Under the pieces are notes generated by a model, which ran no database searches, was not told where the DNA came from, and saw only the letters and a program-made list of their open reading frames with translations. A stretch of 64,000 nt of DNA from Bdellovibrionota bacterium (GTDB lineage Bacteria; Bdellovibrionota_C; UBA2361; JAAYZI01). Positions 10,227 through 60,765 of the stretch are shown here, piece by piece (within the stretch, counting starts at the first letter, position 1; every line of letters starts with the position of its first letter). Position numbers and translations under genes: made by a program. Where the stretch lies: the NCBI GenBank assembly GCA_050950765.1, contig JBMNIF010000003.1, forward strand, positions 448,001 through 512,000. The letters are read 5' to 3'.

Positions 10227-11742
10227 TTAGGGACGGCTGAACGGGCGCGACTGCAGAACGGGATCAGCTAGGTTTAGACGGAGGTCAAAGGTCTGTACGA
10301 GGGTCAAAAATTTGGTGCCACCCTTCAGGGACAGCTGGAACGGGCGCAATTGCAGAATGGGATCAGCTAGGTTTAGACGGAGGTCAAAAATTTGGTGCCA
10401 CCCTTCTTTTTTACCGCTTTGACAGCTTAAGCGACTGGATGAATTTGGTGCCACCCTTCAAGGACGATCGGACGGGCTGCAACTAAAAATCGAATCGGCT
10501 AGGTCTGTACGGGGGTTAAAAATTTGGTGCCACCCTTCAGTGCAGAATCTTGGCTTAAAAGGATAAAGTCTTTAAAATCAATATGTTAGCACCTAACTAA
10601 AAATGGTTAGTTTTGGTGCCACCCACTAGTAAAAGTGGGTGTCCTAATTGGCTGGCAGCGGGGCTTTGGATCTGGTGCCACCCTTCTTTTTTACCGCTTT
10701 GACAGCTTAAGCGACTGGATGAATTTGGTGCCACCCTTCAGGGACAGCTGGAACGGCGCGATTGTAGAATGGGATCAGCTAGGTTTAGACGGAGGTCAAA
10801 GGTCTGGACGGAGGTCAAAAATTTGGTGCCACCCTTCAGTGCAGAATCTTGGCTTAAAAGGATGAAGTCTTTAAAATCAATATGTTAGCACCTAACTAAA
10901 AATGGTTAGTTTTGGTGCCACCCACTAGTAAAAGTGGGTGTCCTAATTGGCTGGCAGCGGGGCTTTGGATCTGGTGCCACCCTTCTTTTTTACCGCTTTG
11001 ACAACTTAAGCGACTGGATGAATTTGGTGCCACCCTTCAGTGCAGAATCTTGGCTTAAAAGGATGAAGTCTTTAAAATCAATATGTTAGCACCTAACTAA
11101 AAATGGTTAGTTTTGGTGCCACCCACTAGTAAAAGTGGGTGTCCTAATTGGCTGGCAGCGGGGCTTTGGATCTGGTGCCACCCTTCTTTTTTACCGCTTT
11201 GACAGCTTAAGCGACTGGATGAATTTGGTGCCACCCTTCAGGGACAGCTGGAACGGCGCGATTGTAGAATGGGATCAGCTAGGTTTAGACGGAGGTCAAA
11301 GGTCTGGACGGAGGTCAAAAATTTGGTGCCACCCTTCAGTGCAGAATCTTGGCTTAAAAGGATGAAGTCTTTAAAATCAATATGTTAGCACCTAACTAAA
11401 AATGGTTAGTTTTGGTGCCACCCACTAGTAAAAGTGGGTGTCCTAATTAGCTTGGGCGGGCTGATACTAAAAAATGAATCAGCTAGATTACGACGGGGGT
11501 AAAAAGTGGGTGTCCTAATTGGCTGGCAGCGGGACTTTAGATCTGGTGCCACCCACTAGGGACGGCAGAATGGGCTGTAACTAAAAACCGAATTGGCTAG
11601 GTCTGTACGGGGGTCAAAAAACTGGTGCCACCCTTCAGGGACGGTTGAACGGACGAGATTGCAGAATGGGATCGGCTAGATCTCTACGGAGGTAAAAAGT
11701 GTCACCCTTTGGCTAGTCAAGCTAGCCTAGAGGGTGATGCAC
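10227..11742 (+). repeat. Mosaic repeat array 1: 18 TGGTGCCACCC cores separating reused modules A/B/C/D
   Basis: Cores at 10313, 10393, 10446, 10525, 10614, 10673, 10726, 10824, 10913, 10972, 11025, 11114, 11173, 11226, 11324, 11413, 11544 and 11623. Lies between convergent genes. Confidence 0.95.
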
Positions 11743-11762
11743 CAGCCACACTAGATCTTTAA

Positions 11763-14075
11763 TTAATCTTTAGTTGCCACCTCTAAAGCCAGTTGTTTAG
11801 AACCCTTTAGATCCAACTTACCGCTACCAAGTAATGGGATATGATCGACACGGTAATAATCCTCAGGCTTCGGGATCCAGATATTAGGAAGTCCTCTCTC
11901 TGCCAACTGTTTTGACAACATTCTGGGATCTATATCATCAAGAATGTGCAAAACTACCAGCCTTTCACCACGTTTAGCATCAGGTACCCCCATCACCACA
12001 CAGACTCGATCTATTCGATCTAAGATCTCATGCAATATCTCTTCAGATTTAATATGCGGTATCATCTCACCAGCAATTTTACTGAAACGGTTTAAGCGAT
12101 CTGTAATATGAATAAAACCATCAGCATCACATACTGCGATATCACCCGTACAATACCAAGAGTCTTTAACGACCTCTTTAGTTAGATCTTCACGTTGATA
12201 ATATCCCATCATAACATTCGGACCCTTAACGTATAATAAGCCTTCTTGATTAGCTCCCAACTCTTGACCGGTCGTAATATCAACAACCTTTACGGTTATC
12301 TGCGGCATAGGTCTACCAACTGTACCTTCCTTAAATCCAACCTGTCCTTTCCAATATCCGGAAACATCGTGCAAATTTACAGAAACAACAGGGGCTGTCT
12401 CTGTACAGCCGTACCCCTCATAAATATTAAGTCCAAACTTCTGATAAAAATCCACAGCAACTTTGCCTTTTAATTTCTCCGCTCCTGAAACTATTGTTTT
12501 AAGAGAAGCAAACTGTTCTTTGGTACATTTCTTAATATAGTTCGCTATAAAGGTCGGAGTTCCGATTAAAAGGGATAGCTTATGCTCTTCAATCGCTTTT
12601 CCTATTGTAGCGGCTTCAAATGGATTGTGATGATAGACCACTTTAAAACCTGCTAGAATCGGCATCCACAAAGCAACTGTATACCCGAAAGAGTGGAAGA
12701 ACGGTAAAATCGCCATCAAACCATCTTTACGATTTAGACTTAAAGCGGAGATAAAGGCCTCAGCATTTGAAGTGATATTATAATGCGAAAGCATCACCCC
12801 TTTAGGCTCTCCCGTGCTACCGCTAGAAAAAATTAACGTAGCTAGATCATCTCTCGAAGGTTTATCTGAGAAGAAAAGTTTTTCCAAAACAACTCTCGGG
12901 AATAAGAGGGTAATTATTTCGTAGCATAATTTTTTAAAACGTTCAGGTCTCTCTATTATATCCTCGACAAAAAGCATCGATTCCGATGGCTGCTTGCCAA
13001 GTTTATTTAATAACTCTCGTGCAGTGATGATTGTCTCCATCCCTGTTTGTTTTTTTACAGACTCAATAAACTCATCAGGCACAGTGTAATTTAAATTAAC
13101 AGGAATCTTACCTACAAAGTATAAAGCGATATTGGTCAAGGTTGACTGAACAGAGGGTGGCAACATCACTCCGACAAACTTCGATGAAGATTCGCGCAAT
13201 TCCTTCTTTAATTTTCTACTCAATAGCAATGCTGCAGCCAACACTTGCAGATAATTTAATTTAAACCCATTAGCATTCGCCATTGCAAAGCGAAACGGAG
13301 ATCTCGAAGCCGTTTTCAGAAACGCTAGCGGCAAAACGCCAAAGACCTCTTTTCTATAACATGCCACATCAGCCCCCAACTCCTGCACTGCACGCCGTGC
13401 TTCATACGGAGTCGCTGCTTCTTTTATCGGAGCGCCGAAAGCAACCGTCATCGGATACGGTATCTCTTGCGGCAATGTACAACGAATATTACTGTTAAAT
13501 AAATTGCATTTTATGCCCCAAACTTTATCCAGATAAACTGGGATCACCGGAGCATCACTATTTTTTCTAATCCACCTAAAACCACTAGTAAACGGCAACA
13601 TATTACCAACTCGTTGCACATGCCCTTCTGCAAAGATAACTATCAGTTCACCGTTTCTAACGGCTTGTGCAGCTTCACCAAGTGACTTAAGGCTTTCTCG
13701 AGTACACTTAGCTGGAATCGGGATGACACGCATTAATTTTGTTAACGGTTTTATCAACGGTTTATTAGCGATCCGCTCATAAACTAAAAATCGCACAGGA
13801 CGTTTTATTACCGCTGCCAATATCAACGGGTCAAAATACGAAACGTGATTACAAACTAAGATAGCTCCTCCGCTCTGAGGGATATTTTCATCACCTACAA
13901 TTTTCAGTTTGTAAATAAAGCGGATTATCAACCAATTCATTTTGGTAATAAAAAAACGTGGACAGATCAACAGAGCTGCAAGCACAAGAGCAGCTAGGAC
14001 AGCCATTGTTTCCAGTAAAATCCCAAAATAAAAAAGAACAATTAAAAGTATTTCAATAGTAGCAACAATTATCAT
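11763..14075 (-). CDS. aas: Aas-like bifunctional acyltransferase / acyl-ACP synthetase (copy 1)
   Basis: NHVSYFD and FAEG (PlsC); FSSGSTGEPKG, EGYGCTE and TGD (AMP-binding). Confidence 0.85.
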   Translation of the reverse strand: MIIVATIEILLIVLFYFGILLETMAVLAALVLAALLICPRFFITKMNWLIIRFIYKLKIVGDENIPQSGGAILVCNHVSYFDPLILAAVIKRPVRFLVYERIANKPLIKPLTKLMRVIPIPAKCTRESLKSLGEAAQAVRNGELIVIFAEGHVQRVGNMLPFTSGFRWIRKNSDAPVIPVYLDKVWGIKCNLFNSNIRCTLPQEIPYPMTVAFGAPIKEAATPYEARRAVQELGADVACYRKEVFGVLPLAFLKTASRSPFRFAMANANGFKLNYLQVLAAALLLSRKLKKELRESSSKFVGVMLPPSVQSTLTNIALYFVGKIPVNLNYTVPDEFIESVKKQTGMETIITARELLNKLGKQPSESMLFVEDIIERPERFKKLCYEIITLLFPRVVLEKLFFSDKPSRDDLATLIFSSGSTGEPKGVMLSHYNITSNAEAFISALSLNRKDGLMAILPFFHSFGYTVALWMPILAGFKVVYHHNPFEAATIGKAIEEHKLSLLIGTPTFIANYIKKCTKEQFASLKTIVSGAEKLKGKVAVDFYQKFGLNIYEGYGCTETAPVVSVNLHDVSGYWKGQVGFKEGTVGRPMPQITVKVVDITTGQELGANQEGLLYVKGPNVMMGYYQREDLTKEVVKDSWYCTGDIAVCDADGFIHITDRLNRFSKIAGEMIPHIKSEEILHEILDRIDRVCVVMGVPDAKRGERLVVLHILDDIDPRMLSKQLAERGLPNIWIPKPEDYYRVDHIPLLGSGKLDLKGSKQLALEVATKD

Positions 14076-14132
14076 CGAAATAAAAAATCCTAAAAAACAT
14101 TTACAATATTAAACACTACAAAAAAAACGATT

Positions 14133-16463
14133 TTAAGCACTTGCCTTTTTCTGACTCGCCAACTCTAACGCCATCTGCTTTGCTTTCCTTAAATCTAATT
14201 TACCACTTCCCAGAAGCGGCATCTCTTCCACCCTATAATAATCCTCCGGCTTCGGAATCCACAAGTTCGGCAAACCGTGCTCCGACATTAACTTTGAAAG
14301 GTGTCTCGGATCAATCTCATCTAGCAGATGTAATACTACTAGGCGCTCTCCTCTCTTACCATCAGGCACACCAGTCACAACACAAACTCGTTCAGACTTA
14401 TCAAGCAACTCATGAAAAAGCTCTTCTGCTTTAATATGCGGCACCATTTCACCAGCAATCTTACTAAAACGACTTAAACGATCCGTTATTTTAATAAAGC
14501 CTTCATCATCACACATCGCGATATCGCCCGTGCAATACCAAGAGTCTTTCATTACCTCGCGCGTCAAATCTTCCCTACCCAAATACCCCATCATTACATT
14601 AGAGCCTTTAATGTATAGAAGCCCTTCCTGATTAGCTTCAAGCTCCTCTCCCGTATCTACATCTAAAATCTTAGCTGCTATCTGCGGCATTGGTCTACCA
14701 ACTGTGCCTTCTTTATAGCCGAGCTGTCCTTTCCAATATCCAGAAACATCTTTTAAATTTACGGAAACTACCGGTGAGAGTTCTGTGCAACCGTAACCTT
14801 CATGAATATTAATCCCGAATTTATCGTAAAAATCGACAGCCACACCTTTCTTTAACTTTTCAGCGCCAGCGATCGCTAAGCGCAGATACGAAAACTGTTC
14901 CTTAGTACATTTTTTAGTATACGCAGCAAAGAAAGTAGGCGTTCCAACGATTAAAGTCACCTTATGATCTTCCATAGCTTGTCCAATGGTGCTCGCATCA
15001 AAGGGACTGAAATGATAAACGACTTTAGCTCCAGATAATAGCGGCAACCACAAACAGACTGTAAAGCCAAATGAATGAAAAAACGGCAAGATGCCTATTA
15101 ATGTATCCTTACGCCCGATATGCAAAGAAGCTAAAAAACTCTCAATATCAGAAGCGATATTATCATGTGACAACATCACGCCTTTGGGTTCGCCTGTACT
15201 ACCACTTGAGAAAACTAAGGTTGCCAAATCATATCTCGACGGCTTTTCCGTTAGATAAAGTTTCTTAATCAGAAACTGCGGCATCAGCAAAGCGATAGAG
15301 ACATGTTTCAATTTCTCCCAAGTAGACAGCCCTCCTAAAAGATCTTCTAAAAAGAGCATTGAAGGGAGCGCCTGCTTATTAAGTTTTTCTAAAAATTTTT
15401 TAGAGGTGACAATCGTCTGCATCCCCGTTTGCTTTTCTACTGAAAGTAAAAATTTATCAGAAGCTGTATAATTTAAATTAACAGGTATTTTTCCTATGAA
15501 ATACAGGGCGATATTGATCAACACGGCCTCTACGGAAGGTGGCAACATAATCCCGACAAATTTAGATTCAGATGGTGGAATAGTCTGCTTTAAAATCTTT
15601 GCAGAGAGTAATGACATCCCTAGCACCTGCATATAATTCAAACTACGTCCTGTGGCGTTCGCCATCGCCTTGCGAAAAGGAGCTCGCTTGGCAGTCCTCA
15701 AAAAAGCTAAGTGCAATACCTGAAAAACTTCTTTTTTATACGGTGCAACATCAGCTCCCAATTCCTGAACGATACGACGTATTTTATAGGCACTACACTC
15801 TTCTTTAATGGGTTCTCCAAAAGCCACTGTCATCGGATACGGCAACTCTTTTGGCATATTGCAATGAAACTTTCCTTCAAAGAAAACCCAGTTTGTCCCC
15901 CAAACGCGATCAATATAAACAGGAATTATCGGAGCATTGCTTTCTCGTCTGATACGGTTAAAGCCGGTTGTAAATGACAACATCGTACCGACTCGTTGCA
16001 CATGTCCTTCAGCAAAGATAACGACTAATTCTCCGTTTTTTACAGCGTCTGCGGCCATATCTAAAGCTCGTACGCTATCTCTATTACATTTTGCTGGGAT
16101 CGGAATCGCCTTGACAGCTTTCGCTATAGGTTTTACGAACCATGTGTTATAAATCGCATCATACACCAAAAAACGAACAGGTCTGTTCATAGAAGCGGAT
16201 AGAATCAACGGGTCTAAGTAAGAAACATGATTACAAACAAGGATTGCTCCGCCATCTTTCGGAATGTTTTCAAGACCTATAATTTTTAACTTATAAACGA
16301 TCCTGATAATAAATCGGGTCAACGCCAAGATCGTACGTTGCGGAGCAATAACAGCGCATAACACCACTATCAAAGTTATTATTAAAAGTGTCTGTAATAG
16401 AATTCCTAATTTTAATAAAAGTAGGAGTAGTGCAAGGGGAAGTAGAAGTATAATTATAGTCAT
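14133..16463 (-). CDS. aas: Aas-like bifunctional acyltransferase / acyl-ACP synthetase (copy 2)
   Basis: Same motifs as copy 1; tandem paralogue. Confidence 0.85.
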   Translation of the reverse strand: MTIIILLLPLALLLLLLKLGILLQTLLIITLIVVLCAVIAPQRTILALTRFIIRIVYKLKIIGLENIPKDGGAILVCNHVSYLDPLILSASMNRPVRFLVYDAIYNTWFVKPIAKAVKAIPIPAKCNRDSVRALDMAADAVKNGELVVIFAEGHVQRVGTMLSFTTGFNRIRRESNAPIIPVYIDRVWGTNWVFFEGKFHCNMPKELPYPMTVAFGEPIKEECSAYKIRRIVQELGADVAPYKKEVFQVLHLAFLRTAKRAPFRKAMANATGRSLNYMQVLGMSLLSAKILKQTIPPSESKFVGIMLPPSVEAVLINIALYFIGKIPVNLNYTASDKFLLSVEKQTGMQTIVTSKKFLEKLNKQALPSMLFLEDLLGGLSTWEKLKHVSIALLMPQFLIKKLYLTEKPSRYDLATLVFSSGSTGEPKGVMLSHDNIASDIESFLASLHIGRKDTLIGILPFFHSFGFTVCLWLPLLSGAKVVYHFSPFDASTIGQAMEDHKVTLIVGTPTFFAAYTKKCTKEQFSYLRLAIAGAEKLKKGVAVDFYDKFGINIHEGYGCTELSPVVSVNLKDVSGYWKGQLGYKEGTVGRPMPQIAAKILDVDTGEELEANQEGLLYIKGSNVMMGYLGREDLTREVMKDSWYCTGDIAMCDDEGFIKITDRLSRFSKIAGEMVPHIKAEELFHELLDKSERVCVVTGVPDGKRGERLVVLHLLDEIDPRHLSKLMSEHGLPNLWIPKPEDYYRVEEMPLLGSGKLDLRKAKQMALELASQKKASA

Positions 16464-18736: not shown

Positions 18737-19105
18737 GGTGGCACCGCCACCCTTCAGGGACAACTGAACGGGGTGATACTAAAAAATAAGTCAACTAGAT
18801 TACGACGGAGGTTAAGAGTGGGTGTCCTAATTGGAGAGCGAGATCGGTTAGGTTTCGACGGAGGTTAAAAATTTGGTGCCACCCTTCAGTGCTAAAAGAC
18901 TCTAAAATTGCAATAGTTAGTAATATCAGTATGTTAGTAAAAGCTCAGAATTCGGCAGTTTTGGTGCCACCCAACAGAGGGGAGCCGCCACCCACTAGGG
19001 ACAATTGAACGGGGTGATACTGCAAAACGAACTGGTTAGATTTCTACGGAGGTTAAAAGGTGGGTGTCCTAAAAAGAAGAAAGTATCTACACTCGGGGGT
19101 CAGGA
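18737..19105 (+). repeat. Mosaic repeat array 2 (modules A, E and terminal module)
   Basis: Cores at 18874 and 18962 (88 bp apart), two GTGGGTGTCC cores and A modules. Confidence 0.9.
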
Positions 19106-21849: not shown

Positions 21850-22242
21850 ATGAAGCATATTTTCTCGTTAATACTTCTCTGTTTGACAGCATGTTCAATG
21901 ACTCCTGGTTATTCCTGTGAAAACGAACCACAAAGCACCATTCCAGTTTACGCTCACGGCTCAATTATAAAAGAGGTAAATGGTGTAAAAGTTAGTGCGT
22001 GGAGTCGCGGTGTTTTACTTGTTCCTGGTGAGAACACTTTATTGATAAAAGTTGATCCAACTAATTACAACAGCCTTGCTCCGCAAAATACCATCTACGA
22101 ATTGGAGATGACTGCCGTAGAGGGAAAGGAATATATTGTAACAAGTAAAACCGGTATCGGTCAGATCTGTGCTTGGGAACGTAATAGAATAACAGGTCAG
22201 CCGGATTATTCTGCTAATGCTGGCTGCGTTAAACGCCGATAG
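21850..22242 (+). CDS. Hypothetical lipoprotein
   Basis: Signal peptide ending in the lipobox LTAC. Confidence 0.65.
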   Translation: MKHIFSLILLCLTACSMTPGYSCENEPQSTIPVYAHGSIIKEVNGVKVSAWSRGVLLVPGENTLLIKVDPTNYNSLAPQNTIYELEMTAVEGKEYIVTSKTGIGQICAWERNRITGQPDYSANAGCVKRR

Positions 22243-22484
22243 GGACTATCGGTGAAATCTAAAATTAGTACGTCTTATACGCGACATGATAATTTAGCAG
22301 GAAAATATTTTTTTTATGTTGCGCTATAAGCGTTTAACTGATGGAAGTGACAGCAGATACGCCATCTGTCGAGATTACATTAACCTTTGATTTTTCATTT
22401 TTACAGTAAGTTAGGAGCAAGTCATCTCGTTCACTAGATGCCACACTAGCGAGGAGGTTTTTTTGCTATCCCAATTAGAGGAAC

Positions 22485-23294
22485 ATGATTTATCGTATTC
22501 TGGAAAATATATTTATACTTTGTATAATTTCTGTGGTTTTTTTAGGTGTTTGGGCATTTTATATAGAACCAAATATGCTCGCAGTTACAAACTACAAGAT
22601 CAAAGATAAAAATTTAAAAGGGATAAAAATTGTTTTAGCTGGTGATTTCCATGTTGCACCTAATCAAGAAAAACGTTTACAGAAAACAGTCCAAAAAATA
22701 AATGATCAAAAACCTGATCTAATCTTATTAGTTGGTGATTTTGTATCGGGGCATGAACGAAAAATGACTCTGTCTGCTGAGGCTATTGCAAAAAATCTTG
22801 CTAATTTAAAGGCAGAGTATGGAGTCTATTCAGTTTTAGGAAATCACGATTGGTGGATAGATGGAGAGGAGGTAACACAAGAGTTAAAGAAAGTAGGGAT
22901 AAATGTTCTCGCAGATTCAAACATGACCGTAAAGATTAATGACAAAGTAGTTTACATTGCAGGTGTTGAAGATCTATCGACAAGGAATTCAGATATTCAT
23001 TCTGCACTGAAGGGAACAAAAGATCCAACGATTTTATTATCACATTCACCTGATATCTTTCCAGAAGTTCCAGCAGGTGTAAATTTAACTGTGGCAGGGC
23101 ATCTTCACGGTGGGCAAATTCGATTTCCATTTATAGGATTTTTATTTATACCGTCAAAATATGGCGAAAGGTATATTTATGGATTATTTGAAGAGAACGA
23201 TAAAAAAATGATCGTTACAAAAGGTGTAGGTAACAGCATTCTGCCATTCCGCTTTAATTGCAAACCTGAAATTGTAGTGATTGATTTTGAATAG
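22485..23294 (+). CDS. Metallophosphoesterase (YkuE/YaeI-like)
   Basis: DFH, GDFV, GNHD, SHSPD and GHLHGGQ motifs. Confidence 0.9.
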   Translation: MIYRILENIFILCIISVVFLGVWAFYIEPNMLAVTNYKIKDKNLKGIKIVLAGDFHVAPNQEKRLQKTVQKINDQKPDLILLVGDFVSGHERKMTLSAEAIAKNLANLKAEYGVYSVLGNHDWWIDGEEVTQELKKVGINVLADSNMTVKINDKVVYIAGVEDLSTRNSDIHSALKGTKDPTILLSHSPDIFPEVPAGVNLTVAGHLHGGQIRFPFIGFLFIPSKYGERYIYGLFEENDKKMIVTKGVGNSILPFRFNCKPEIVVIDFE

Positions 23295-23304
23295 GACTTG
23301 TCAT

Positions 23305-23495
23305 TGGTGCCACCCACCAGTACGACCTGCCATTTCGCAGCAGCGGTTTTTGATTTTGATGATTTTTATAAAGAAAATGGTGTTGATGCTCTGTCAACAC
23401 AGGGCGCAGAGCAGATATAATCACTTTGTGGGTGGCACCAGTTTTACCCCCGTAAAAACCTAGCCGATCCGCTTTGCAGTTCCAGCCCGCCCTAG
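23305..23495. repeat. Inverted core pair enclosing a 108-bp duplicate of 44145-44252, followed by an A module
   Basis: TGGTGCCACCCAC at 23305 and GTGGGTGGCACCA at 23428; 23330-23437 is identical to 44145-44252. Confidence 0.9.
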
Positions 23496-23540
23496 CGTCC
23501 TTGAATCCTTTTCAATTTTATAAGCATCTAAAATTTAGCT

Positions 23541-23567
23541 TTAGTTTTATTACCGTTCTGCCGAATA
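23541..23567 (+). promoter_or_regulatory. Possible sigma-28 promoter for the flagellin-like gene
   Basis: TTAG-N15-GCCGAATA versus consensus TAAA-N15-GCCGATAA. Confidence 0.35.
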
Positions 23568-23691
23568 CATTAGCAAGGGAGAGCTCTTGTATTAGGGAAG
23601 TACAAAAAGAGAGCGCACGGATGCAAAACTTTTTATATAAAAACAGCTATCAACTCAAAGCCTCCATACTTAACTGTGACGGAGGTCTGCC

Positions 23692-25680
23692 ATGAGTACA
23701 ACTATCGGAAGCGTTATTACAGGTTCTTTCATTAACCTTTTTGGAAAATCCACTTCTAAATCTAAACTTTCTCTAAGCCCCCTTAGTTCAGGCGACAACA
23801 AAAAAGATGCAGTTGATTTTTCTACAAATCTAAGAAGCGGAGCTTCCGTTTATAGTAGAGCTATTAAAACCATCTCTTCAGGCGCTGGATATATCAACTT
23901 AGCTAAAGATACCTTGACTAAATTAAGTGATATCACAGACAAACTCATCACATTGGCAGAAAAAGCCACAAAAACTAGCGGAACAACCTCATTACGCAAG
24001 TTAAATCGCTCTTTCCAAGATCTCGCTGACGAATTTAACGATCTAGTAGATAATGCAGATTTTGGCGATCGTGAATATTTAACCATAGAAGGGCTAGAAC
24101 AACTCTTCACTGACATCGGACTCTCTACCAAAAATTCACGCGACTTAGCCACTTTATTTGACAACTTTATTATTGCAAATAAAGACTCTGACAAAACTCT
24201 CGCTAGTGAAATGATGAAACAAAAAAAACCGAGTCAGATACCATCAACTGCCTTTAGCAGCACTATTAATAAACCTTACGAAACACACCTTGCTCAAAGT
24301 ACAACAACATCCGATCCAAACATAACAAACAGCGCCGGATTTATTTCTTCCGTAAATACGGTGACACAACGAAATAACGCAACAGACCCCACCATTACAG
24401 AAATCACTTTCACCTCTGCAGAAACAGCTTCAGAAAACACACTTCAATACTCAGCAGGGACTACTTTAAAAACCATTTCACAATCTTCAGGCTACTCCGT
24501 AATTGAATCTACAGACGATCTAATTCTTGGTCAGAATACTTCCAACTATAAACAACTTTTCCTAATAGATGCTTCAGGAACGGTGCTGCACCAACTCACT
24601 AACATGACAGAATCAGTTTCCTTCGGTGAGGTTGCTATCAGCGACACTAATGACACTATTTACAGTTATGCTAATGCTACCACTACATCAGTGGTAAAAA
24701 GCTCTTTTTTAACAGCAGGCTCCGACCCTGCTACAAATATTGAAACAGATATAGAAAGCACCTCTTTAAGCTCTGATTTAAGTCTCTTTGACAATATAAA
24801 GATCAGTGCGGACGGTAGCTATTTAGCTTATCGTTCAAATACAAGCGGAACTTGGAAAACTCACCTCAAAGATTCTGAAACATTAACTTCTGATACAACC
24901 TTAGAAAATAACTCAGATATAACAAATTTCGGATTTATTGCTAACGATACACTAGCTCTGATTCAAGGCGTAGCAGGCAATCAAACGATCTCTTATTACA
25001 AAGATGGTTCAGACAATTTAAAAACAGTAGCGAGCGCCTTAAATATCGGACACTTTTCTACTGTGCAAGCAGATACAAGCAAAAAAAGCTTCATCTCATA
25101 TACCAGTAATGACATCTCGAGTTATAACGATCTCTACGTCATTGATGAAAAAGGCAATAACATTACTACCTATGATTTTGAAGCGAGTGATAATATCAGC
25201 AACTTCAGCATTGCAAGTAATGAAAACGGACTACCACGAATCGGGCTCTTCGGAACCCTCTCTGTAAATGGTGATACAGACTCAGAGATGTATCAAATAG
25301 ATATTTCAGGAGGACCTAAAAACATTAAATACACTACTAATGTTTCAAGACCTTTAAAAATATTTAGCAGCACATTTAGTTTATCTAACCGCGCCTCTGG
25401 TTACGTTGCTCTTGATGATCTAAAAGCTATAAAAAAACAGATCACAGAAAACCTTGAAAATCTCGATAAGATCCTAGATGTAATGCAAGAAAACGTTGAC
25501 CTCGTTCGCGCCACAGGCTTAGCTATGTTAGAAGTTGCAAACAAGATCACAAGCTACGATGATGCCGAAAGTGTTGCCAAATCACTCCGCTTGGAGATCT
25601 TAAAAACAGCTCCAACCCTACTTAACCAAGTCCACAACTTGGAACCTTTAGCATCAGCAGCCCTGCTTTACGAAGACTAA
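23692..25680 (+). CDS. Divergent flagellin-like protein with a large central insert
   Basis: N-terminal (LADEFNDLVDNADFG) and C-terminal (ITSYDDAESVAKSLRLEIL...LLNQVHNLEP) helical regions match flagellin D0/D1 by eye; S/T-rich beta-type middle. Confidence 0.65.
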   Translation: MSTTIGSVITGSFINLFGKSTSKSKLSLSPLSSGDNKKDAVDFSTNLRSGASVYSRAIKTISSGAGYINLAKDTLTKLSDITDKLITLAEKATKTSGTTSLRKLNRSFQDLADEFNDLVDNADFGDREYLTIEGLEQLFTDIGLSTKNSRDLATLFDNFIIANKDSDKTLASEMMKQKKPSQIPSTAFSSTINKPYETHLAQSTTTSDPNITNSAGFISSVNTVTQRNNATDPTITEITFTSAETASENTLQYSAGTTLKTISQSSGYSVIESTDDLILGQNTSNYKQLFLIDASGTVLHQLTNMTESVSFGEVAISDTNDTIYSYANATTTSVVKSSFLTAGSDPATNIETDIESTSLSSDLSLFDNIKISADGSYLAYRSNTSGTWKTHLKDSETLTSDTTLENNSDITNFGFIANDTLALIQGVAGNQTISYYKDGSDNLKTVASALNIGHFSTVQADTSKKSFISYTSNDISSYNDLYVIDEKGNNITTYDFEASDNISNFSIASNENGLPRIGLFGTLSVNGDTDSEMYQIDISGGPKNIKYTTNVSRPLKIFSSTFSLSNRASGYVALDDLKAIKKQITENLENLDKILDVMQENVDLVRATGLAMLEVANKITSYDDAESVAKSLRLEILKTAPTLLNQVHNLEPLASAALLYED

Positions 25681-25682
25681 AA

Positions 25683-26547
25683 ACCTGACTTCCAAATACC
25701 AATTTAAGGCATCCACTTTTAGGTTAAATTCCATTTTCCCCTAATGTCTTGATATTATTAACACCCCTGAAGGGTGGCACCAAATTTTTGACCTCGCTTT
25801 GCAGTTGCAGCCCGTCCTGCTGCCCTGAAGGGTGGCACTAAATTCAAGCCCAGCTAAATCTGCTAGATCTGCTCAAACTGGTGGGTGGCACCAGTTTTTT
25901 GACCCTCGCTGCTTCTTACTGGTGGGTGGCACCAAAACTGCCAAATTCTAAGTTTTTACTAACATCTTGATATTATTAGCTATTGTAATTTTGGAGTCTT
26001 TTAGCACTAAAGGGTGGCACCAAATTTTTAACCCCCGTAGAAATCTAGCTAACTCGCTCTGCAGTTGCAGCCCGTTCTGCTGTCACTAAAGGGTGGCACT
26101 AAATTCAAGCCCAGCTAAATCTGCTAGATCTGCTCAAACTGGTGGGTGGCACCAGTTTTTTGACCCTCGCTGCTTCTTACTGGTGGGTGGCACCAAATTT
26201 TTAACCTCCTAGATCTGCCCAAACTGGTGGGTGGCACTAAATTCAAGCCCAGCTAAATCTGCTAGATCTGCCCAAACTGGTGGGTGGCACTAAATTTTTA
26301 ACCTTCGTAGAAATCTAGCTAACTCGCTTTGCAGTTGCAGCCCGTCCTATTGTCCCTAAAGGGTGGCACCAAAACTGTCAAATTCTAAGTTTTTACTAAC
26401 ATCTTGATATTATTAGCTATTGTAATTTTAGAGTCTTTTAGCACTGAAGGGTGGCACCAAATTTTTAACCCCCGTAGAGACCTAACCGATCCCGCTCTGC
26501 AAGTTGCAGCCCGTCCTGCTGTCACTAAAGGGTGATACAAATTCACC
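25683..26547 (-). repeat. Mosaic repeat array 3 (12 GGGTGGCAC cores)
   Basis: Cores at 25772, 25830, 25883, 25924, 26012, 26091, 26144, 26185, 26229, 26282, 26361 and 26449. Lies between convergent genes. Confidence 0.95.
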
Positions 26548-27842
26548 TACTCTTTCGGCAATAGCTCTTTAATAAACGTATGCGTCAATGACTTCTGCTT
26601 AATAATTGCGTAACAAGGTCCAGCTTCAACCGTGAAGTTTATAGTTTTCTTTTTTCTTTTATTTTTTTCATTATTCAGATTCAAAGCTACAATGAAAGGC
26701 TTTTTCATCACAATTTTTTTCGCCGTCATCTTAACTTCACCGGTAGAAACCGTTTTCTGATTCAATGAATTATGATGCACTGTTTGAAGGACAACCCCCG
26801 CACTAATACTTTCATTATTTATAGGAACGATCTTCTTTTTACCAAAAGGCTGGTACTCCAAAGTAACAGATGGATAATGCAACATTGATTCATCCATCGA
26901 AAATCTACTCGGCAAAATTTCATCTGAAGTTAAAATTTGTGCTCTGGCTAAACCTGGACCAAAGCCAGAGATTACCCCTGCCTGCACCTGCCCAACAGCT
27001 GTTGTTTCAACGGCAACCATCTCATAATTTGTATTATGCATCCCAGTATAACCGCCTTTAAATTTCCAAGGATCAAAATCTCGCGGGCATAACAACACGG
27101 CACGGGTATCACGTTGTTTAATATTCGGTATTATTACAACCATGCTTGTGTCATCGCGCCCTTTCAAAAAAATTCGTTGTTGTTTATCTACATCTGTCAA
27201 AATTCGATAGCCACCCCTCTCTGATTCTTTTTTCGGCATACTATGCCTCACCGTTAAATTATCACGATCTTTAAAGCGCGACCTAGGATCAACAATAGGC
27301 ATACTCGCCATCTGCTCTGCTAAGGGACGCTCCTCACTAAAAGATACAGATACATAATATGCGTTGGGTTTACCTTGCGGCACCTTCTCTCCTGCATACT
27401 GAAAACGAAGCGTCATCTCCTTTAATTCAGCATCCATAAAAAGAGTATCTCGCTTCCATTCTTTCCAAGGAGCCCCTTTATATAATTTAATATCATTCGG
27501 AATATCTAACTGAGTATCGGTGATAATACTCTCCAGCAACAATTTAAATTTATAATCCTCAACAGGAGTAACTTCATAGTGCTTAGCATCTTTAGCAAAC
27601 TCAACACGGGCACCGATTTTAGGAGGTGGCATTACTTCTTCATCCAACTGATCCAACTTCCTCTCTAGCGAATCAAACGAACCTGCTTTAGTAGGCGTTG
27701 GAGTAGCTTCCTCCTCCGTTACATCCAACAAACCTTTCCAAGGATCATCATCAGCAAAAAGAGGTGCAGTAAATAAAGAGGCTTCAAGTGCACCTAAAAT
27801 TAAGCCACTAAAAAACATTTTTTTCAGTTTTAAATTTTTCAT
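26547..27842 (-). CDS. Hypothetical exported protein, last gene of the mre/rod cluster
   Basis: 431-aa ORF with a signal-peptide-like N-terminus, 3 bp downstream of rodA. Confidence 0.7.
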   Translation of the reverse strand: MKNLKLKKMFFSGLILGALEASLFTAPLFADDDPWKGLLDVTEEEATPTPTKAGSFDSLERKLDQLDEEVMPPPKIGARVEFAKDAKHYEVTPVEDYKFKLLLESIITDTQLDIPNDIKLYKGAPWKEWKRDTLFMDAELKEMTLRFQYAGEKVPQGKPNAYYVSVSFSEERPLAEQMASMPIVDPRSRFKDRDNLTVRHSMPKKESERGGYRILTDVDKQQRIFLKGRDDTSMVVIIPNIKQRDTRAVLLCPRDFDPWKFKGGYTGMHNTNYEMVAVETTAVGQVQAGVISGFGPGLARAQILTSDEILPSRFSMDESMLHYPSVTLEYQPFGKKKIVPINNESISAGVVLQTVHHNSLNQKTVSTGEVKMTAKKIVMKKPFIVALNLNNEKNKRKKKTINFTVEAGPCYAIIKQKSLTHTFIKELLPKE

Positions 27843-27845
27843 ATT

Positions 27846-28991: not shown

Positions 28992-29019
28992 CTGAATCGT
29001 TCTTCACAAAAAATTTTAT

Positions 29020-30897: not shown

Positions 30898-30898
30898 A

Positions 30899-31420
30899 TT
30901 ATTTTTTTACAATCTGATATTCACTAATGCCAACAAGAGTTTTGTTCGCAATTTTACGTCTAAAAAAGTAAAATAAAAACGGAGCTATGATAGCTCCTAA
31001 AGCAGCTTCCAATATCGTGTCGAAAAGGATGCTCCATTCATAATTAATTTCATCATGCACAAGCGCCAAGATTAGATGATGCAAAGACACCGTTAAAAAT
31101 GACGCAATAAAAACCCCTATAACAATCACAAAAGCAGACTCAATAAAGACTCGTTGCGAAGACAACACCAATAAAGCAAATACTAAAACATACGCTCCTG
31201 CCCATGGTCCAAGCAACACTCCACTACACAGATCCAATTCAAATCCAAGCGCAAACGCTAAAATAGCTCCTCTAACATTAGGCTCATAGAATGCTAAATA
31301 AACCAGAACCACCGCCAACAGATTCGGCACCACCATTGCAGGTGCGATCATTTTTAAGATCGTCCCTGGGATAAGAATTGCCAGCATGCCTAAGAATAGT
31401 ATAAAGGATGATTTTTTCAT
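30899..31420 (-). CDS. mreD: Rod shape-determining protein MreD
   Basis: Hydrophobic 173-aa protein between mreC and mrdA. Confidence 0.85.
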   Translation of the reverse strand: MKKSSFILFLGMLAILIPGTILKMIAPAMVVPNLLAVVLVYLAFYEPNVRGAILAFALGFELDLCSGVLLGPWAGAYVLVFALLVLSSQRVFIESAFVIVIGVFIASFLTVSLHHLILALVHDEINYEWSILFDTILEAALGAIIAPFLFYFFRRKIANKTLVGISEYQIVKK

Positions 31421-32271: not shown

Positions 32272-32302
32272 AATTTAATTTTATTATTTACAATAAAAAG
32301 CG

Positions 32303-33355
<1,053 letters not shown>

Positions 33356-33496: not shown

Positions 33497-33969
33497 GCCA
33501 ATTAGGACACCCACTTTTAACCCCCGTCCAGATCTAGCTACTTCGTTTTGCAGTATCAGCCCGCTTAATCGTCCCTAGCGAGTGGTAGTAAATTCTCCCC
33601 GTCCAGATCTAGCCACTTCGCTCTGCCGTCGCAGCCCGTTCAGCCGTCCCTGAAGGGTGGGGGAGCTTCTGGTGGGTGGCACCAAAACTAACCTTTTTTA
33701 GTTAGGTGCTAACATATTGATTTTAAAGACTTCCCCCTTTTAAGCTAAAATCTGCACTGGTGGGTGGCACCAAATTTTTAACCCCCGTACAGACCTAGCT
33801 GACTCGCTCTGCAGTTTCAGCCCGTCCTGCCGTCCCTGAAGGGTGGCACCAGATCCAAAGCCCTGCTGCCAATTAGGATACCCACCTTTACTGGTGGGTG
33901 GCACCAGATCTGCCTAATATCGGTTTTTTGCTAACGCCTTGATATTATTAGCTATTATAATTTTAGAGT
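33497..33969 (-). repeat. Mosaic repeat array 4
   Basis: Cores at 33674, 33762, 33841 and 33896; modules A, C, D and E-like; GGACACCCAC at 33505. Confidence 0.9.
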
Positions 33970-34990: not shown

Positions 34991-35010
34991 AATCTTTATT
35001 GGCTACTTAC

Positions 35011-44240: not shown

Positions 44241-44347
44241 TTGTGGGTGGCATTAGTGCCACCCTTCAGGGATGACAGAGCGGGCATCGATTGCAGAACG
44301 GATTAGCCAGATCTTCACGGAGGTTAAAAAACTAGTGCCACCCACAA
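44241..44347. repeat. Miniature element: one A module inside 17-bp inverted repeats
   Basis: TTGTGGGTGGCATTAGT ... ACTAGTGCCACCCACAA (1 mismatch). Confidence 0.8.
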
Positions 44348-45061: not shown

Positions 45062-45355
45062 TTTTTTACCTCCGTAAAAAACCTAACTAATTCGTTTTTT
45101 AGTTTCAGCCCGTTCCATCGTCACTAAAGGGTGAATTTTTAACCTCCGTGAAAATCTAGCTAATTCATTTTTTAATATCAGCCCGTTCGATTGTCCCTAA
45201 TAGGTGGTAATAAATTTTTACCTCCGTACAGACCTAGTTGACTCGTTCTGCAGTTTCAGCCCGTTCCATCGTCACTGAAGGGTGAATTTTTAACCTCCGT
45301 GAAAATCTAGCTAATTCATTTTTTAATATCAGCCCGTTCAACTCTCCCTAGTGCA
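45062..45355 (-). repeat. Array of four A modules with eroded cores
   Basis: Repeated TTTT(A)ACCTCCGT...CAGCCCGTTC units; cores reduced to AAGGGTG or AGGTGG. Confidence 0.8.
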
Positions 45356-49298: not shown

Positions 49299-49670
49299 TC
49301 CTGACTCCAAAGTGTAGATACTTTCTTCTTTTTAGGACACCCACTTTTAGCTAAATCTTAAGCTTACACTAACGTTTTGATATTATTAAGTTATTGTAAT
49401 TTTAGAGTTTGGGTGTCCTATTTGTATGCTTTGACCTCCGTCTAAATCTAGCTGATCTTGCTCTGCAATCGCGCCCGTTCCAATTTTTTGACCTACGTCT
49501 AGATCTACCTAGTGGGTGGCACCAAATTTTTAACCTCCGTCCAGATCTTTGACCTCCGTCTAAACCTAGCTGATCTTGCTCTGCAATCGCGCCCGTTCCA
49601 ATTTTTTGACCTACGTCTAGATCTAAGTGATCCGCTTTTCTGTTTCAGCCCCGTTTTATTACCCCTAGTA
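49299..49670 (-). repeat. Mosaic repeat array 5 (terminal module, IHF module between inverted second cores, A modules)
   Basis: TAGGACACCCA at 49333 and TGGGTGTCCTA at 49410; main core at 49514. Confidence 0.85.
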
Positions 49671-57497: not shown

Positions 57498-59858
57498 ATG
57501 ATTCATCAGATTGAAATTTGGATACTTGAACTTATCCGCTGGTATTTTAATTCCAGTTTCGTATTTGCCATACCATCTATCGTCCTCATCATTGTCCTCC
57601 TCTTTTTGCAGTTTTCACATCAAAACAAAAACCCTCTCCCTGGCATTGGTGCCATTCTACTTTGTATTGTCGAATTCTTTCACCTAGTTGAAAAATTCCA
57701 GGTAAGAGCTGATCTCTACTTTACAGACTTAATCCATCAGATGGAGATGCCATCACCATCTTCCTTTGGAAAATTGCCTTTTGGCTTCGAGCAGATCTTC
57801 ACTATCTTTGTTGGAAAAGCTGAAACTCGAACTTACCTTGAAGAGTTAATTTTTGTTATTTTTGCCACCTACTTTATACTTTTTCTAATAGAGGGTAGGA
57901 AGGATTATAAAAGAACTGGTGTCATACTCGGAGATTTCTCCATAAAAGATATCGTGAGTGGCTTTAATAATGAGGATCGTCGTCCTATCCGTTCAAAATC
58001 AAATGAGCTAGGTTCCGGAGATTTAGCCAATACAGATCAGATTATAAAATGGACAAAACCATCAGGTTCAAAAGGAGATACCTGTTTGCCAGTTACTGAT
58101 CTGCGCGGAAGCGACGGTATCTCGCTACGTTCCGGAGAGCTAGTCTGGCCAGCCGGAGAAAGGAATCGTCATATTTTAGCTATTGCAAAAACCGGTAGTG
58201 GAAAAACCTCCCGTTTAATCTTACCGATTCTTTATAGCGATTGTCTTTGCCAAGATCGTTCCACTATCGTGATCGACTCAAAGCCTGAGATGTGGCGCAA
58301 ATTGGCTCGCATGACTCGTGAATATAATCCTGAAAAAAATATCATGCTCTTCAACCCGTTAGATATTTCACGAAGCATGAGTTGGAATATTTTAAGTAAG
58401 ATTGAAGATGACACCGACTGTAAACTAATCGCTAACACCTTGATCATGGCAACAGAGAATCCATCTGCTAAAGGTGACAGCCCTTTCTTTAGGAACAACG
58501 CTCTTTCGATTTTAAATGCTATCATGGTCGGCTTATTGCGAGATCCTGATGAAACCTTATCAATGCCGAGGATCCACGAATTGGTACAATCTGGTATGAA
58601 GCCACTTTGTGATTGGTTGGAATCTCATCCGGAAGCATTCAGGACTTCCAGAACCTTTGTTGAATTGGCTAGATCAGAATCTCAAAATGCTGACACGATT
58701 ATGTCGGAGTTGGGATCCCGCTTAAGCGCTTGGGACCTACACGCTGTTCGTGCCACTACTGCCAAAGATGAATTGGATATCAAAAAGCTAATTACCGAAC
58801 CAACCCTCTTCATCGTTGAGTTCAGAGAATCAGAATTAGAGATGTTACGACCGTTGGCGAACGTAATTGTTATTGAGCTTCTAAGATTCTTAACGAAACA
58901 AGCCGAGTTCTGTCCTGGATCTAAATTACCACGTCCTGTCGGTTTAGTTATTGACGAGTTTGCTTCTGCACTAGGTCGCTTGCCTGATATTCACGTCAAG
59001 TTAAACACATTGCGTTCCCGTAATGTTAGTATCGTGGCAGCAATTCAATCAATCGCACAGATAAAATCGAACTATGGCGATACAGCAGATTCCGTATTAG
59101 CTGGTTTTAGCTCAACTATTTTAATGCCGTCTTTGGATGTCCAAGATGCAGAGTGGGCATCGAAAGAATCAGGTCAGATGACTATTCGCTTTCAAACCGC
59201 ATCTACCGGTAGTAACCGAAAGATTATTGAGTGGTTTGCTAGTAAAAACGTCGGCTCTCAAGAACAGGTACAACAACGTGCTGTTTTAACACCAGACGAG
59301 ATCGGACGTCCTGCCGATAACCGCGCTACCTTTTTCATGCCGAATACCCCACCCTTTCAAGGTTTCTTGGTGCCATTTTTCAAGATTCCGGAGATGCTCA
59401 AACGTCTAACAGAGTTTGATAACGATAAAGATGAGCTCTTTTTACGGGATGCGCCGATCGATTATGTAGATGCTCCCCCTGCTCCACCAGCTGCCAAACA
59501 GAACGCTGCTGCTTCAGGTGGGCTGCCTGCAGGTATCTCCAATACAGCAGGTTGGACAGATGAACAGCTAGCAAAGAAGCTTGATGAAGTTAGAGCCAGC
59601 CTTGATTGGGATAATACCACAGGGAGCGCTAGAAAATGGTGGGAAGCTTTTGAGAATGAAAATAAGCACCGTCTGGCATTGGTGCTTAGATTGGCTGAAG
59701 AGCTAGCTAACCGTAAAGCAACAATTACGGAATTCTTTCTCGCCTACGTTTACAGTAACACAGATAATATCCAAGCGAATTTATACTACCTTGACTACTC
59801 TCGCTTAAAGAAAGAGGAAGAACGCAAACGTAAAGAAGCTGCAGCAGCTAATCCGTAG
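57498..59858 (+). CDS. VirD4/TraG-like type IV coupling protein ATPase
   Basis: N-terminal TMs, Walker A AKTGSGKT, DSKPE, FNP..S.SWN, Walker B LVIDEF, QSIAQI..YG and LTPDEI. Confidence 0.8.
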   Translation: MIHQIEIWILELIRWYFNSSFVFAIPSIVLIIVLLFLQFSHQNKNPLPGIGAILLCIVEFFHLVEKFQVRADLYFTDLIHQMEMPSPSSFGKLPFGFEQIFTIFVGKAETRTYLEELIFVIFATYFILFLIEGRKDYKRTGVILGDFSIKDIVSGFNNEDRRPIRSKSNELGSGDLANTDQIIKWTKPSGSKGDTCLPVTDLRGSDGISLRSGELVWPAGERNRHILAIAKTGSGKTSRLILPILYSDCLCQDRSTIVIDSKPEMWRKLARMTREYNPEKNIMLFNPLDISRSMSWNILSKIEDDTDCKLIANTLIMATENPSAKGDSPFFRNNALSILNAIMVGLLRDPDETLSMPRIHELVQSGMKPLCDWLESHPEAFRTSRTFVELARSESQNADTIMSELGSRLSAWDLHAVRATTAKDELDIKKLITEPTLFIVEFRESELEMLRPLANVIVIELLRFLTKQAEFCPGSKLPRPVGLVIDEFASALGRLPDIHVKLNTLRSRNVSIVAAIQSIAQIKSNYGDTADSVLAGFSSTILMPSLDVQDAEWASKESGQMTIRFQTASTGSNRKIIEWFASKNVGSQEQVQQRAVLTPDEIGRPADNRATFFMPNTPPFQGFLVPFFKIPEMLKRLTEFDNDKDELFLRDAPIDYVDAPPAPPAAKQNAAASGGLPAGISNTAGWTDEQLAKKLDEVRASLDWDNTTGSARKWWEAFENENKHRLALVLRLAEELANRKATITEFFLAYVYSNTDNIQANLYYLDYSRLKKEEERKRKEAAAANP

Positions 59859-59891
59859 ACTAATACCGTTTTTACCCCCCCCCAAAAAAAA

Positions 59892-60765
59892 AACTGACCC
59901 CCTACTGGTGGGTGGCACCAAATTTACCAGCATTCTTTTAAGCCAAGATTCTGCACTGGTGGGTGGAGCCGTCCTTGCTGGTGGGTGGCACCAGATCTGC
60001 AGACCCTACAGTTGCAGCCCGTTCAGCCGTCCTTGAAGGGTGGCACCAGATCCAAGCCCCGCTGCCAATTAGGACACCCACCTTTAACTGGTGGGTGGCA
60101 CCAAAACTGCCAGATTTTAAGCTTTTGATAACATCTTGATATTACTAGCGGCACTGGTGGGTGGCACCAGTTTTTTAACCTCCGTCCTTGAAGGGTGGCA
60201 CCAGTTTTTTCCCGCTGCAATTTGCAGCCCGTTCAGCCGTCCCTGAAGGGTGGCACCAAATTTATCCAGTCGCCTAAGCCATCAAAGCAGCAAAAAAGAA
60301 GGGTGGCACCAGCGTCTAGCTGCCCAAACCGGTGGGTGGCACCAAAACTAACCATCTTTAGTTAGGTGCTAACATATTGATTTTAAAGGCTTCATTCTTT
60401 TAAGCCAAGATTCTGCACTGGTGGGTGGCACCAAATTTTTGACCAGTGCTGCTGGTGGGTGGCACCAGATCCAAGCCCAGCCAAAGTCAGCAGATCCCGT
60501 CTTACTAGTGGGTGGCACCAAGACTGCCGAACACCAGATCTGCAGCCCGTTCAGCCGTCCCTGAAGGGTGGCACCAGCGTCTAGCTGCCAGATCCAAGCC
60601 CCGCTGCCAATTAGGACACCCACCTTTAACTGGTGGGTGGCACCAAAACTGCCAGATTTTAAGCTTTTGATAACATCTTGATATTACTAGCGGCACTGGT
60701 GGGTGGCACCAGTTTTTTAACCTCCGTCCTTGAAGGGTGGCACCAGTGCTGGAACCAGTGCTGGA
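59892..60765 (-). repeat. Mosaic repeat array 6 (16 GGGTGGCACCA cores)
   Basis: Cores at 59910, 59983, 60038, 60093, 60159, 60193, 60248, 60301, 60334, 60423, 60457, 60510, 60566, 60635, 60701 and 60735. Lies between convergent genes. Confidence 0.95.

Follow-up and report, generated by a model that had tools for sequence, protein, structure and literature searches.

The described systems closest to the one considered here are the TIRtrons, in which a RAYT-like gene (TIRYT) is bounded by terminal inverted repeats (TIRs), and whose dispersed repeat families have been described as occurring "in dimers or clusters" (Di Nocera, De Gregorio and Rocco 2013, PMC3733652). TIRYTs have been equated with subclass 2.1 of the TnpA-Y1 transposases, which show NH[YF]H or NHVH and Y-x3-NP motifs, have long C-terminal parts with helix-turn-helix (HTH)-type domains (Bac_DnaA_C, HTH_23, and HTH_28), and are prevalent in delta-proteobacteria; no sequences like repetitive extragenic palindromes (REPs) were found beside genes of this subclass (Quentin et al. 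2018, PMC6006769). Where TIRs are treated in the two papers, they mostly contain a GGGGWSAS motif (PMC6006769, PMC3733652). RAYTs themselves typically occur as one copy per genome and pass on by vertical inheritance (Bertels et al. 2017, PMC5581495), and TnpA-REP has been reported to cleave and join single-stranded REPs in vitro (Corneloup et al. 2021, PMC8266576). The subject of the present analysis is a 64-kb stretch of DNA from a Bdellovibrionota bacterium (C3:448001-512000 of a 2.64-Mb, five-contig, 40%-GC assembly), referred to below as the window, in which arrays built on an 11-nt core, GTGCCACCC, occupy intergenic sites. These arrays are very likely the cognate repeats of a multicopy Y1 transposase element, and they are probably the amplified, gene-less companion repeats of this IS (insertion sequence)-like "TIRtron" of ~1.4–1.5 kb, with exchange taking place at the core.

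The transposase element

A Pfam search of the whole genome for Y1_Tnp gave six matches, all to one open reading frame (ORF), and none of these lies in the window; an earlier note on this DNA had placed a trans-acting enzyme of the RAYT/Y1 kind outside the window, which is where the six copies were found. The copies share 97.5–99.0% nucleotide identity over 1406–1498 bp and stand in unrelated flanks, and a partial seventh gene copy adjoins one of them. Five of the six encode identical proteins of 322 amino acids (aa), and the product of the other is 99% identical. The position of one copy is as follows.

G000 C2:892201-893166: one transposase gene copy, the five others lying elsewhere

All six copies have the same layout, namely module A (the commonest of the segments that separate cores in the arrays), a CTGGTGCCACCC core (+), 35 nt, a core (−), ~70 nt, the gene, and a ACTGGTGGGTGGCACCAG core (−), with CTGGTGCCACCC at the left end of the element and its complement at the right end. 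The search for Y1_Tnp/RAYT genes flanked by the core, which the earlier note had proposed, thus found every copy to be so flanked. The arrays on either side of each copy point inward—that is, with + orientation on the left and − orientation on the right—and beside the right end stand tandem partial copies of the 3′ part of the element (414, 250, 157, 88, and 71 bp), each of which terminates in a core.

The protein carries HUH (NHFH) and YIYINP motifs, and 20 family members all share H61, H63, W100, Y121, Y123, N125, and P126. Its best solved relative is E. coli TnpA-REP (4ER8), both by sequence (E 5e-5) and by profile (E 8.5e-9, with ISDra2 at 4e-4). Fold searches with an AlphaFold model of the whole protein (pLDDT 89.3) also placed 4ER8 at the top, by Foldseek (TM 0.71, root-mean-square deviation 2.6 over 141 columns) and by VIA-align (Z 13.5 over 154 aligned residues, followed by IS608 TnpA at 7.9). 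The gene product is, on sequence and model, a RAYT-like Y1/HUH transposase with a predicted TnpA-REP-like fold. Its C-terminal half (~145–322, ~180 residues) is conserved across the family and confidently modeled, with G240, R272, W293, G296, G305, and P309 invariant or nearly so; Pfam found only Y1_Tnp, with no other family and no HTH or DnaA_C domain in this half, and the whole-model Foldseek and VIA-align searches gave no clear fold match to it. The full-length family comprises 453 representatives at E up to 1e-30, and its Atlas clusters are labeled merely "hypothetical" or "transposase family."

The repeat family in the genome

Genome-wide, 1025 exact cores were counted in 161 clusters (gaps of up to 300 bp being joined), on all five contigs and with unique flanks. 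More than one core is present in 109 of the 161 clusters, and 18 of these 109 are of mixed orientation. With a gap of 400 bp, the multi-core arrays number 110 and together cover 66.7 kb, which is 2.5% of the genome; the longest array measures 1993 bp, and the richest has 28 cores. ORFs of at least 100 aa take up 80–84% of the DNA, yet 950 of the 1025 cores are found outside them. Neighboring cores are arranged head-to-tail in 874 of 904 pairs, with 22 convergent and 8 divergent. The conserved stretch is longer than 11 nt, approximately AAAWYTGGTGCCACCC followed by a TTCAG-like (about two thirds) or an ACCAG-like sequence.

Between cores, segments of up to 400 bp number 843 and comprise 743 unique sequences, which fall into 322 greedy clusters; single-linkage merging of these clusters was dropped because it over-merged them, with 510 in one group. 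The main module families measure 79–80, 53, 88, 32, 111, and 54 bp core to core, and families are dispersed over up to 44 arrays each. When crude motif labels are used (285 of the 843 segments remaining unlabeled), nearly every class is seen to follow each class, with an order that is weakly non-random (G 135.6 vs 69 ± 12 shuffled). The earlier note had described a finite library of modules recurring in different orders; the mosaic order stands, while the library is less finite than was claimed, given the numbers of unique sequences and clusters.

Arrays in the window

The exact core GTGCCACCC occurs 57 times in the window, as against a mean of 0.09 and a maximum of 1 in 100 dinucleotide-preserving shuffles, with the full TGGTGCCACCC in 51 of the 57 and TAGTGCCACCC in 6. 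All 57 fall between ORFs of at least 100 aa, in eight intergenic loci, and the arrays are co-oriented throughout, an inverted pair of cores at 23.3 kb being the sole exception; the figure of about 57 intergenic, co-oriented cores in the earlier note is, apart from that pair, exact. The arrays and their relatives are as follows.

10227..11700, + strand: largest window array, with 18 exact cores (10.3–11.6 kb) and modules of 53–131 bp, between convergent genes; both ends carry eroded module-A copies with degenerate cores
18745..19075, + strand: small array, with 2 exact cores (18.9 kb) and 2 degenerate cores (CCGCCACCC), alongside an 88-bp module and three whole or partial copies of module A
23305..23505, strand not assigned: inverted pair of cores (2 cores, 23.3–23.4 kb), 23305-23315 (+) and 23430-23440 (−), bounding a 135-bp unit like a MITE (a miniature transposable element with inverted repeats)
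23442-23505, − strand: module-A copy next to the 135-bp inverted-core unit
25772..26545, − strand: array of 12 exact cores (25.8–26.4 kb) and a degenerate terminal core, between convergent genes
33497..33906, − strand: array downstream of ORF 33963-34373, with 4 exact cores (33.7–33.9 kb) and, at 33515-33654, two module-A copies that are eroded
44254..44343, + strand: single module A between two TAGTGCCACCC cores (2 cores, 44.3 kb)
45062..45350, − strand: eroded relative, a tandem of four module-A copies with cores that are diverged or cut down to GGGTGAA
46560..46690, − strand: what is left of two module types, "AATAATAT..GATGTTGG" and "AGTGGGTATCC", with the core absent, as read by eye
49430..49651, − strand: eroded array, with a single exact core (49514-49524; 49.5 kb) and module A in three partial copies
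59910..60765, − strand: array of 16 exact cores (59.9–60.7 kb) and at least six module types, between convergent genes

In the first of these arrays the core-to-core distances are 80, 53, 79, 89, 59, 53, 98, 89, 59, 53, 89, 59, 53, 98, 89, 131, and 79, which agree with the module sizes given in the earlier note, and tandem periods of 299 and 201 bp with 97–99% identity are present. Under crude motif labels, the mosaic order of the window arrays reads ABAEDB.EDBEDB.ED. / EAHHHHAEHH. / aEDaHHE.BaaEDa. The ORF map also bears out the placing of the three largest arrays between convergent genes, the flanking pairs being 8893-10188(+)/11763-14075(−), 23692-25680(+)/26547-27842(−), and 57498-59858(+)/60785-61405(−). 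Both loci that had been listed as eroded relatives are recognizable as such, that at 45.1 kb as four copies with shortened cores and that at 46.5 kb as module remnants only. The 135-bp unit at 23305-23440 is likely, on sequence comparison, to be a MITE-like deletion derivative of the transposase element, because its opening 26 nt are identical to the right end of that element.

Several known types of sequence were considered for the window and rejected. CRISPR was ruled out by the 11-nt length of the repeat, the recurring "spacers," and the 161 loci. The window gave no match to an Rfam family and no tRNA or tmRNA; the complement, GGGTGGC-A-CCA, resembles a tRNA 3′ end, with nothing tRNA-like before it. 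A sigma-54 promoter (TGGCAC-N5-TTGC) was discarded since the −12 element is absent by eye, and an uptake-sequence or KOPS-like role was discarded since cores are never seen apart from modules and have no strand skew.

Comparison with described systems

The TIRYT/TIRtron class, as far as it is described in the papers cited above, offers a better fit to the system than do the bacterial interspersed mosaic elements (BIMEs) and REPINs, because the cores are head-to-tail and mostly non-palindromic and the gene is multicopy; the assignment to a subclass is by motifs only. As in TIRtrons, a RAYT-like Y1 gene longer than the classical RAYTs is bounded by TIRs, with ends distinct from GTAG REPs; copies of the TIR sequence are dispersed through the genome as a repeat family, singly, as dimers, and in clusters (here, 1025 cores at 161 loci); and NHFH and YIYINP correspond to NH[YF]H and Y-x3-NP. 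What appears new relative to TIRtrons as portrayed there is the scale of amplification (1025 cores in 2.64 Mb, as against families called "moderately abundant"), the head-to-tail mosaic with modules of ~30–130 bp, a TIR whose core complement, GGGTGGCAC, does not fit GGGGWSAS, the lack of an HTH or DnaA_C domain detectable by Pfam in the C-terminal half, and the presence of six near-identical, IS-like gene copies. The repeats also adjoin the gene here, whereas Quentin et al. found no REP-like sequences beside genes of subclass 2.1. The earlier note's description of the system as a candidate undescribed one is too strong, the kind of selfish repeat having been described already as TIRYT/TIRtron (Di Nocera 2013, PMC3733652). 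In a literature search for the exact core strings, the matches listed were only primers, and the TIR figures or supplements of PMC3733652 and PMC6006769 may list the core, for example in Rhodopirellula. Among the RAYT/REPIN matches listed, no paper mentions Bdellovibrio.

REPtrons, in which a RAYT/TnpA-REP gene goes with REP, BIME, and REPIN sequences (Nunvar 2010; Bertels and Rainey 2011; Ton-Hoang 2012; Messing 2012, structure 4ER8), provide the next comparison. REPtrons share with this system the closest solved structure (4ER8) and the closest curated family, a gene flanked by its own repeats in inverted orientation (6 of 6 here), intergenic repeats that favor convergent gaps and number from hundreds to a thousand copies, and, probably, a chemistry of single-strand cleavage and joining. 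The differences lie in the repeats, in that REPs are imperfect palindromes of 20–40 nt with a GTAG (or CGTC) tag, whereas the core logo is without GTAG, and in that BIMEs alternate and REPINs are inverted doublets, whereas here 874 of 904 pairs are direct. They lie also in the gene, which encodes a 322-aa protein scoring 67.4 bits against the NCBIfam model REP_Tyr_transpos, below its cut-off of 80, and which is multicopy and IS-like rather than single-copy and domesticated, as RAYTs have typically been portrayed. The BIME/REPIN-like reading in the earlier note was therefore right about the link to a RAYT-like Y1 gene and wrong about the anatomy, with the direct pairs, hairpins in only 89 of 1025 cores, and the multicopy gene all departing from it.

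With IS200/IS605 elements (IS608 and ISDra2), the system shares the Y1/HUH fold, several near-identical copies per genome, and an expected single-strand "peel and paste" logic with insertion next to a fixed short sequence. It differs from them in having Y-x3-NP rather than Y-x3-Q, inverted-repeat ends rather than different subterminal hairpins, no tnpB, and a score of 18.3 bits against the curated IS200 model, for which the cut-off is 55. A lagging-strand bias like that of IS200/IS605 is not visible in the arrays, which split 88 vs 71 relative to local GC skew, and the gene copies number only six. Integron cassette arrays offer a working likeness only, in that co-oriented, unrelated segments are joined at the same short site in many orders; in the present case, however, an integrase and an attC fold are lacking, the segments carry no genes, and the presumed enzyme is an HUH nuclease, not a tyrosine recombinase.

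The core and the gene in other genomes

In a scan that included 30 relatives, the 11-mer count was 943 for this genome, 37 for G019, 16 for G025, and at most 5 for each of the other 28; a relative of the same family, G001, has 2 cores. The protein family is present in 27 of the 30 relatives, usually as several diverged copies, and homologs there have their own arrays and related ends, of the types CTGGTCCGTCCC, ACTGGTGCCCC (11 copies), and CTGGAGGGGGCC: in G015, GGCACCAGTTCGTGGGG occurs eleven times beside the homolog; in G030, GGCCCCCTCCAGTAGTAG stands upstream of the homolog and its complement downstream; and in G013, CCTGGTCCGTCCCA is found inverted on both sides. The complete Bdellovibrionota chromosome CP129486 (G035) has only 9 cores, one of which lies 115 bp upstream of the closest homolog (E 1.6e-86), with a one-mismatch inverted copy ~250 bp downstream.

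A scan of a genome collection for two cores 51–81 bp apart gave at least 89 stretches, many of them in Pirellulaceae, where the arrays consist of co-oriented, intergenic TTGGTGCCACCCACC units with locally repeated spacers of 15–60 bp. Three Pirellulaceae genomes have 83, 84, and 21 cores, with at most 8 in reversed-pattern controls. Among 80 planctomycete array loci fetched with flanks, 5 have a Y1 homolog within 1.5 kb, and in 3 of these 5 the + cores are upstream and the − cores downstream. An upstream core was found at 3 of 3 loci of a 394–412-aa Pirellulaceae Y1 type, as against 0 of 9 for other Y1 paralogs; the Pirellulaceae protein is distant from the 322-aa protein (27% identity over 97 residues, E 2e-7). 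The association of the core with a Y1 gene is, as judged from these comparisons, one that recurs in three lineages. Matches of the same scan in high-GC genomes (Micromonospora, Streptomyces, Kitasatospora, Polyangiaceae, Algihabitans, and others) were set aside as coding repeats of the Gly/Thr/Pro type that do not belong to this family.

Two further relatives carry repeats of their own character. In G019 (CALMIO01), the core takes the form CTGGTGCCACCCTGTTTT and occurs in direct arrays and in inverted pairs 130–190 bp apart, with modules unrelated to those of the window genome. In G021 (L013:99-254), a different repeat, of the classical REP-like sort, is found ~1.15 kb upstream of a family homolog; its 63-bp unit stands three times in tandem and includes each time a 14-bp perfect palindrome (CAATTCGTCACACA/TGTGTGACGAATTG). 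When ORF 33963-34373 was used to look for sister-strain loci in metagenome contigs, only two relatives were recovered, with 52–55% identity and without cores, in a collection from which near-identical records may be missing.

Joints at the core and a possible mechanism

Blocks shared between arrays (at least 95% identity and at least 70 bp) number 310 (median length 102 bp, longest block 586 bp), and 378 of their 620 endpoints fall 5–15 nt from a core center, as against 27% of random array positions. Because the endpoints fall there, single modules common to distant arrays are, at the level of sequence, joined at exchange points at the core, and the module breakpoints are not random relative to it. 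Of the enzyme that the earlier note had supposed to cut and rejoin at the core, the joints at core edges are thus observed, and the cut-and-rejoin step itself is what we infer.

In the preferred reading, the arrays as companion repeats of the element would have arisen in several steps. The enzyme would nick and rejoin single-stranded DNA at or beside the core, much as TnpA-REP acts on REPs, and a core-bounded segment would then be copied or moved to another core. Both partners would be single strands of like polarity, leaving the transferred segment between direct copies of the core, which would account for head-to-tail arrays and a free module order. The arrays would subsequently grow and homogenize by tandem duplication between cores and modules. 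It is possible, though doubtful, that the process amounts to a site-specific single-strand exchange by a Y1/HUH enzyme at an 11–17-nt site (ATTTGGTGCCACCCACC), in which any core-bounded segment would serve as a cassette, open to excision and to reinsertion at any other core, always with the same polarity.

A number of observations weigh against the preferred reading. A profile of module A built without the core found 526 copies genome-wide, 389 of them full length, and only about half of these 389 keep an exact core on each side; over the 284 unique full-length copies, per-site conservation is 0.85–0.87 in the core vs 0.81 in the interior. RNAalifold gave no consensus secondary structure for module A (120 copies, −2 kcal/mol), by which a structured RNA or hairpin in the module was ruled out, and a perfect 6-bp hairpin is present in only 89 of the 1025 cores. 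Array orientation compared with local GC skew (88 vs 71) gives no clear replication-strand bias, and no core-bounded excision products or strain polymorphism were seen in the public contigs, which break at arrays. No Y1 gene was detected by family alignment or Pfam in G019 (37 cores, 92% complete) or in a Pseudobacteriovorax metagenome-assembled genome, G034 (12 cores), both of which are incomplete assemblies. The gene copies are young (97–99% identical) and the module families old (76–87%), so that the arrays do not have to be the work of the present element. Finally, identity within arrays exceeds that between arrays in 8 of 8 module families tested (for example, 0.85 vs 0.76 and 0.99 vs 0.85), and, of 74 exact-duplicate modules, 62 have all their copies inside a single array, so that local duplication alone would suffice for much of the pattern.

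Alternative explanations

The findings on duplicates also speak for an explanation that is more likely than the remaining ones and is nevertheless rather unlikely, namely that the element merely seeds cores and that host recombination—through slippage, unequal crossing-over, and gene conversion—builds the shuffled arrays. Local tandem duplication clearly contributes in any case, and appears from the sequences to be a major force shaping the arrays, because copies within an array are more alike and because of the 299- and 201-bp tandem periods, at 97–99% identity, in the window. Host recombination would also suit the many short modules that are internal-deletion derivatives retaining both module-A ends, as well as the absence of replication-strand bias in array orientation. 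However, with families in up to 44 arrays and cores at 161 loci, a dispersal step is needed; 12 exact module sequences are common to different arrays; and the blocks of at least 95% identity are short (median 102 bp) and end at the core. Moreover, RecA-type recombination on 11–25 bp of identity between distant loci is inefficient.

An improbable alternative is that the arrays are kept for a host function, as stabilizers of RNA 3′ ends or terminators, as insulators of convergent genes, or as sites for nucleoid proteins, the tie to the transposase being historical. Such roles have been attributed to REPs in E. coli, and convergent gaps hold 45 of 159 arrays (28%), yet make up 16% of all gaps. 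In the 59.9-kb array, a ACTGGTGGGTGGCACCAGT hairpin followed by TTTTT on the strand opposite the core forms terminator-like sites at 60153-60171, 60695-60713, and 59905-59930 (+), which face the upstream + gene, and terminator-like sites in the region 59.7–60.9 kb number 6 vs 2.1 expected. On the other side, the full hairpin with a T-run is found in only 16 of 1025 cores, divergent gaps hold arrays at the expected frequency (25 of 159), and G001, of the same family, has just 2 cores, indicating a host lineage without need of arrays. Nor is there a clear rule of orientation relative to neighboring genes, since the impression gained in the window, that arrays are oriented like the gene upstream, fails genome-wide (49 vs 36).

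It is very improbable that the core belongs to MITE-like units, as their terminal inverted repeat, and that a different transposase moves these units, with the Y1 gene as a passenger. The core-bounded inverted pairs of G019, a genome without a Y1 match, and the 135-bp inverted-core unit of the window (23305-23440) are what such an explanation would lead one to expect. Inverted pairs are rare, however (30 of 904, six of them at Y1 copies), the core accompanies Y1 genes in three lineages and not other Y1 paralogs, and the 135-bp unit has 26 nt in common with the Y1 element's own end.

A chimeric origin of the arrays, in the assembly of a metagenome bin rich in repeats, is scarcely credible, for while short-read contigs of four public runs end at array edges and leave the interiors without independent confirmation there, the arrays stand at 161 loci on all five contigs with unique flanks, contigs of several runs enter arrays identically from both sides, a 142-nt contig matches 26267-26408 without difference (run X1 may be the source sample), and like arrays occur in unrelated assemblies, one of them a complete chromosome. 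This check compared window positions 22000-35000 with Logan contigs of runs X1, X2, X10, and X18; the joints in these contigs have sides of 20–32 nt and jump between arrays, and are uninformative on heterogeneity or circles.

As to where the organism lives, the four runs (X1, X2, X10, and X18), which come from four studies, place it in metagenomes of bioreactors, anaerobic digesters, biogas fermenters, and landfill. Scattered single-base changes set the landfill strain apart, and its contig departs from the window exactly at the start of the 33.5-kb array.

Neighboring genes

The 59.9-kb array has at its outer edge, at 59875-59900, a homopolymer pair consisting of a T run and then a G run (~9–10 nt each, − strand), adjoining the last core. 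Directly upstream of this array, ORF 57498-59858 (+) encodes a TraG/VirD4-type coupling protein of type IV secretion. Beside the largest array, ORFs 11763-14075 (−) and 14133-16463 (−) are adjacent and encode ~770 aa each, the former being an acyltransferase fused to an AMP-binding (acyl-activating) enzyme. ORF 37180-42855 (+), of 1891 aa, brings together DUF748 and TamB domains, POTRA repeats, and an Omp85 barrel, and has the look of a TamB-TamA-like fusion within one polypeptide.

Significance

TIRYT/subclass 2.1 enzymes with long C-terminal halves are widespread and, in the literature cited here, their function has so far gone without tests. The present genome, with six intact gene copies and ~1000 cognate sites, provides an unusually clear enzyme–substrate pair for biochemistry, and its head-to-tail mosaic is a pattern that the REPIN model leaves unexplained. 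The arrays also have a practical consequence, in that they break short-read assemblies of this organism. That the core is common to distant Y1 clades of Bdellovibrionota and Pirellulaceae suggests, from sequence comparison, a conserved recognition rule. If the tentative view of core-bounded segments as cassettes were true, the system would be an HUH-based counterpart of integron cassette arrays, one that would have built ~2.5% of the genome and whose recognition site would be conserved between two phyla and two distant enzyme clades.

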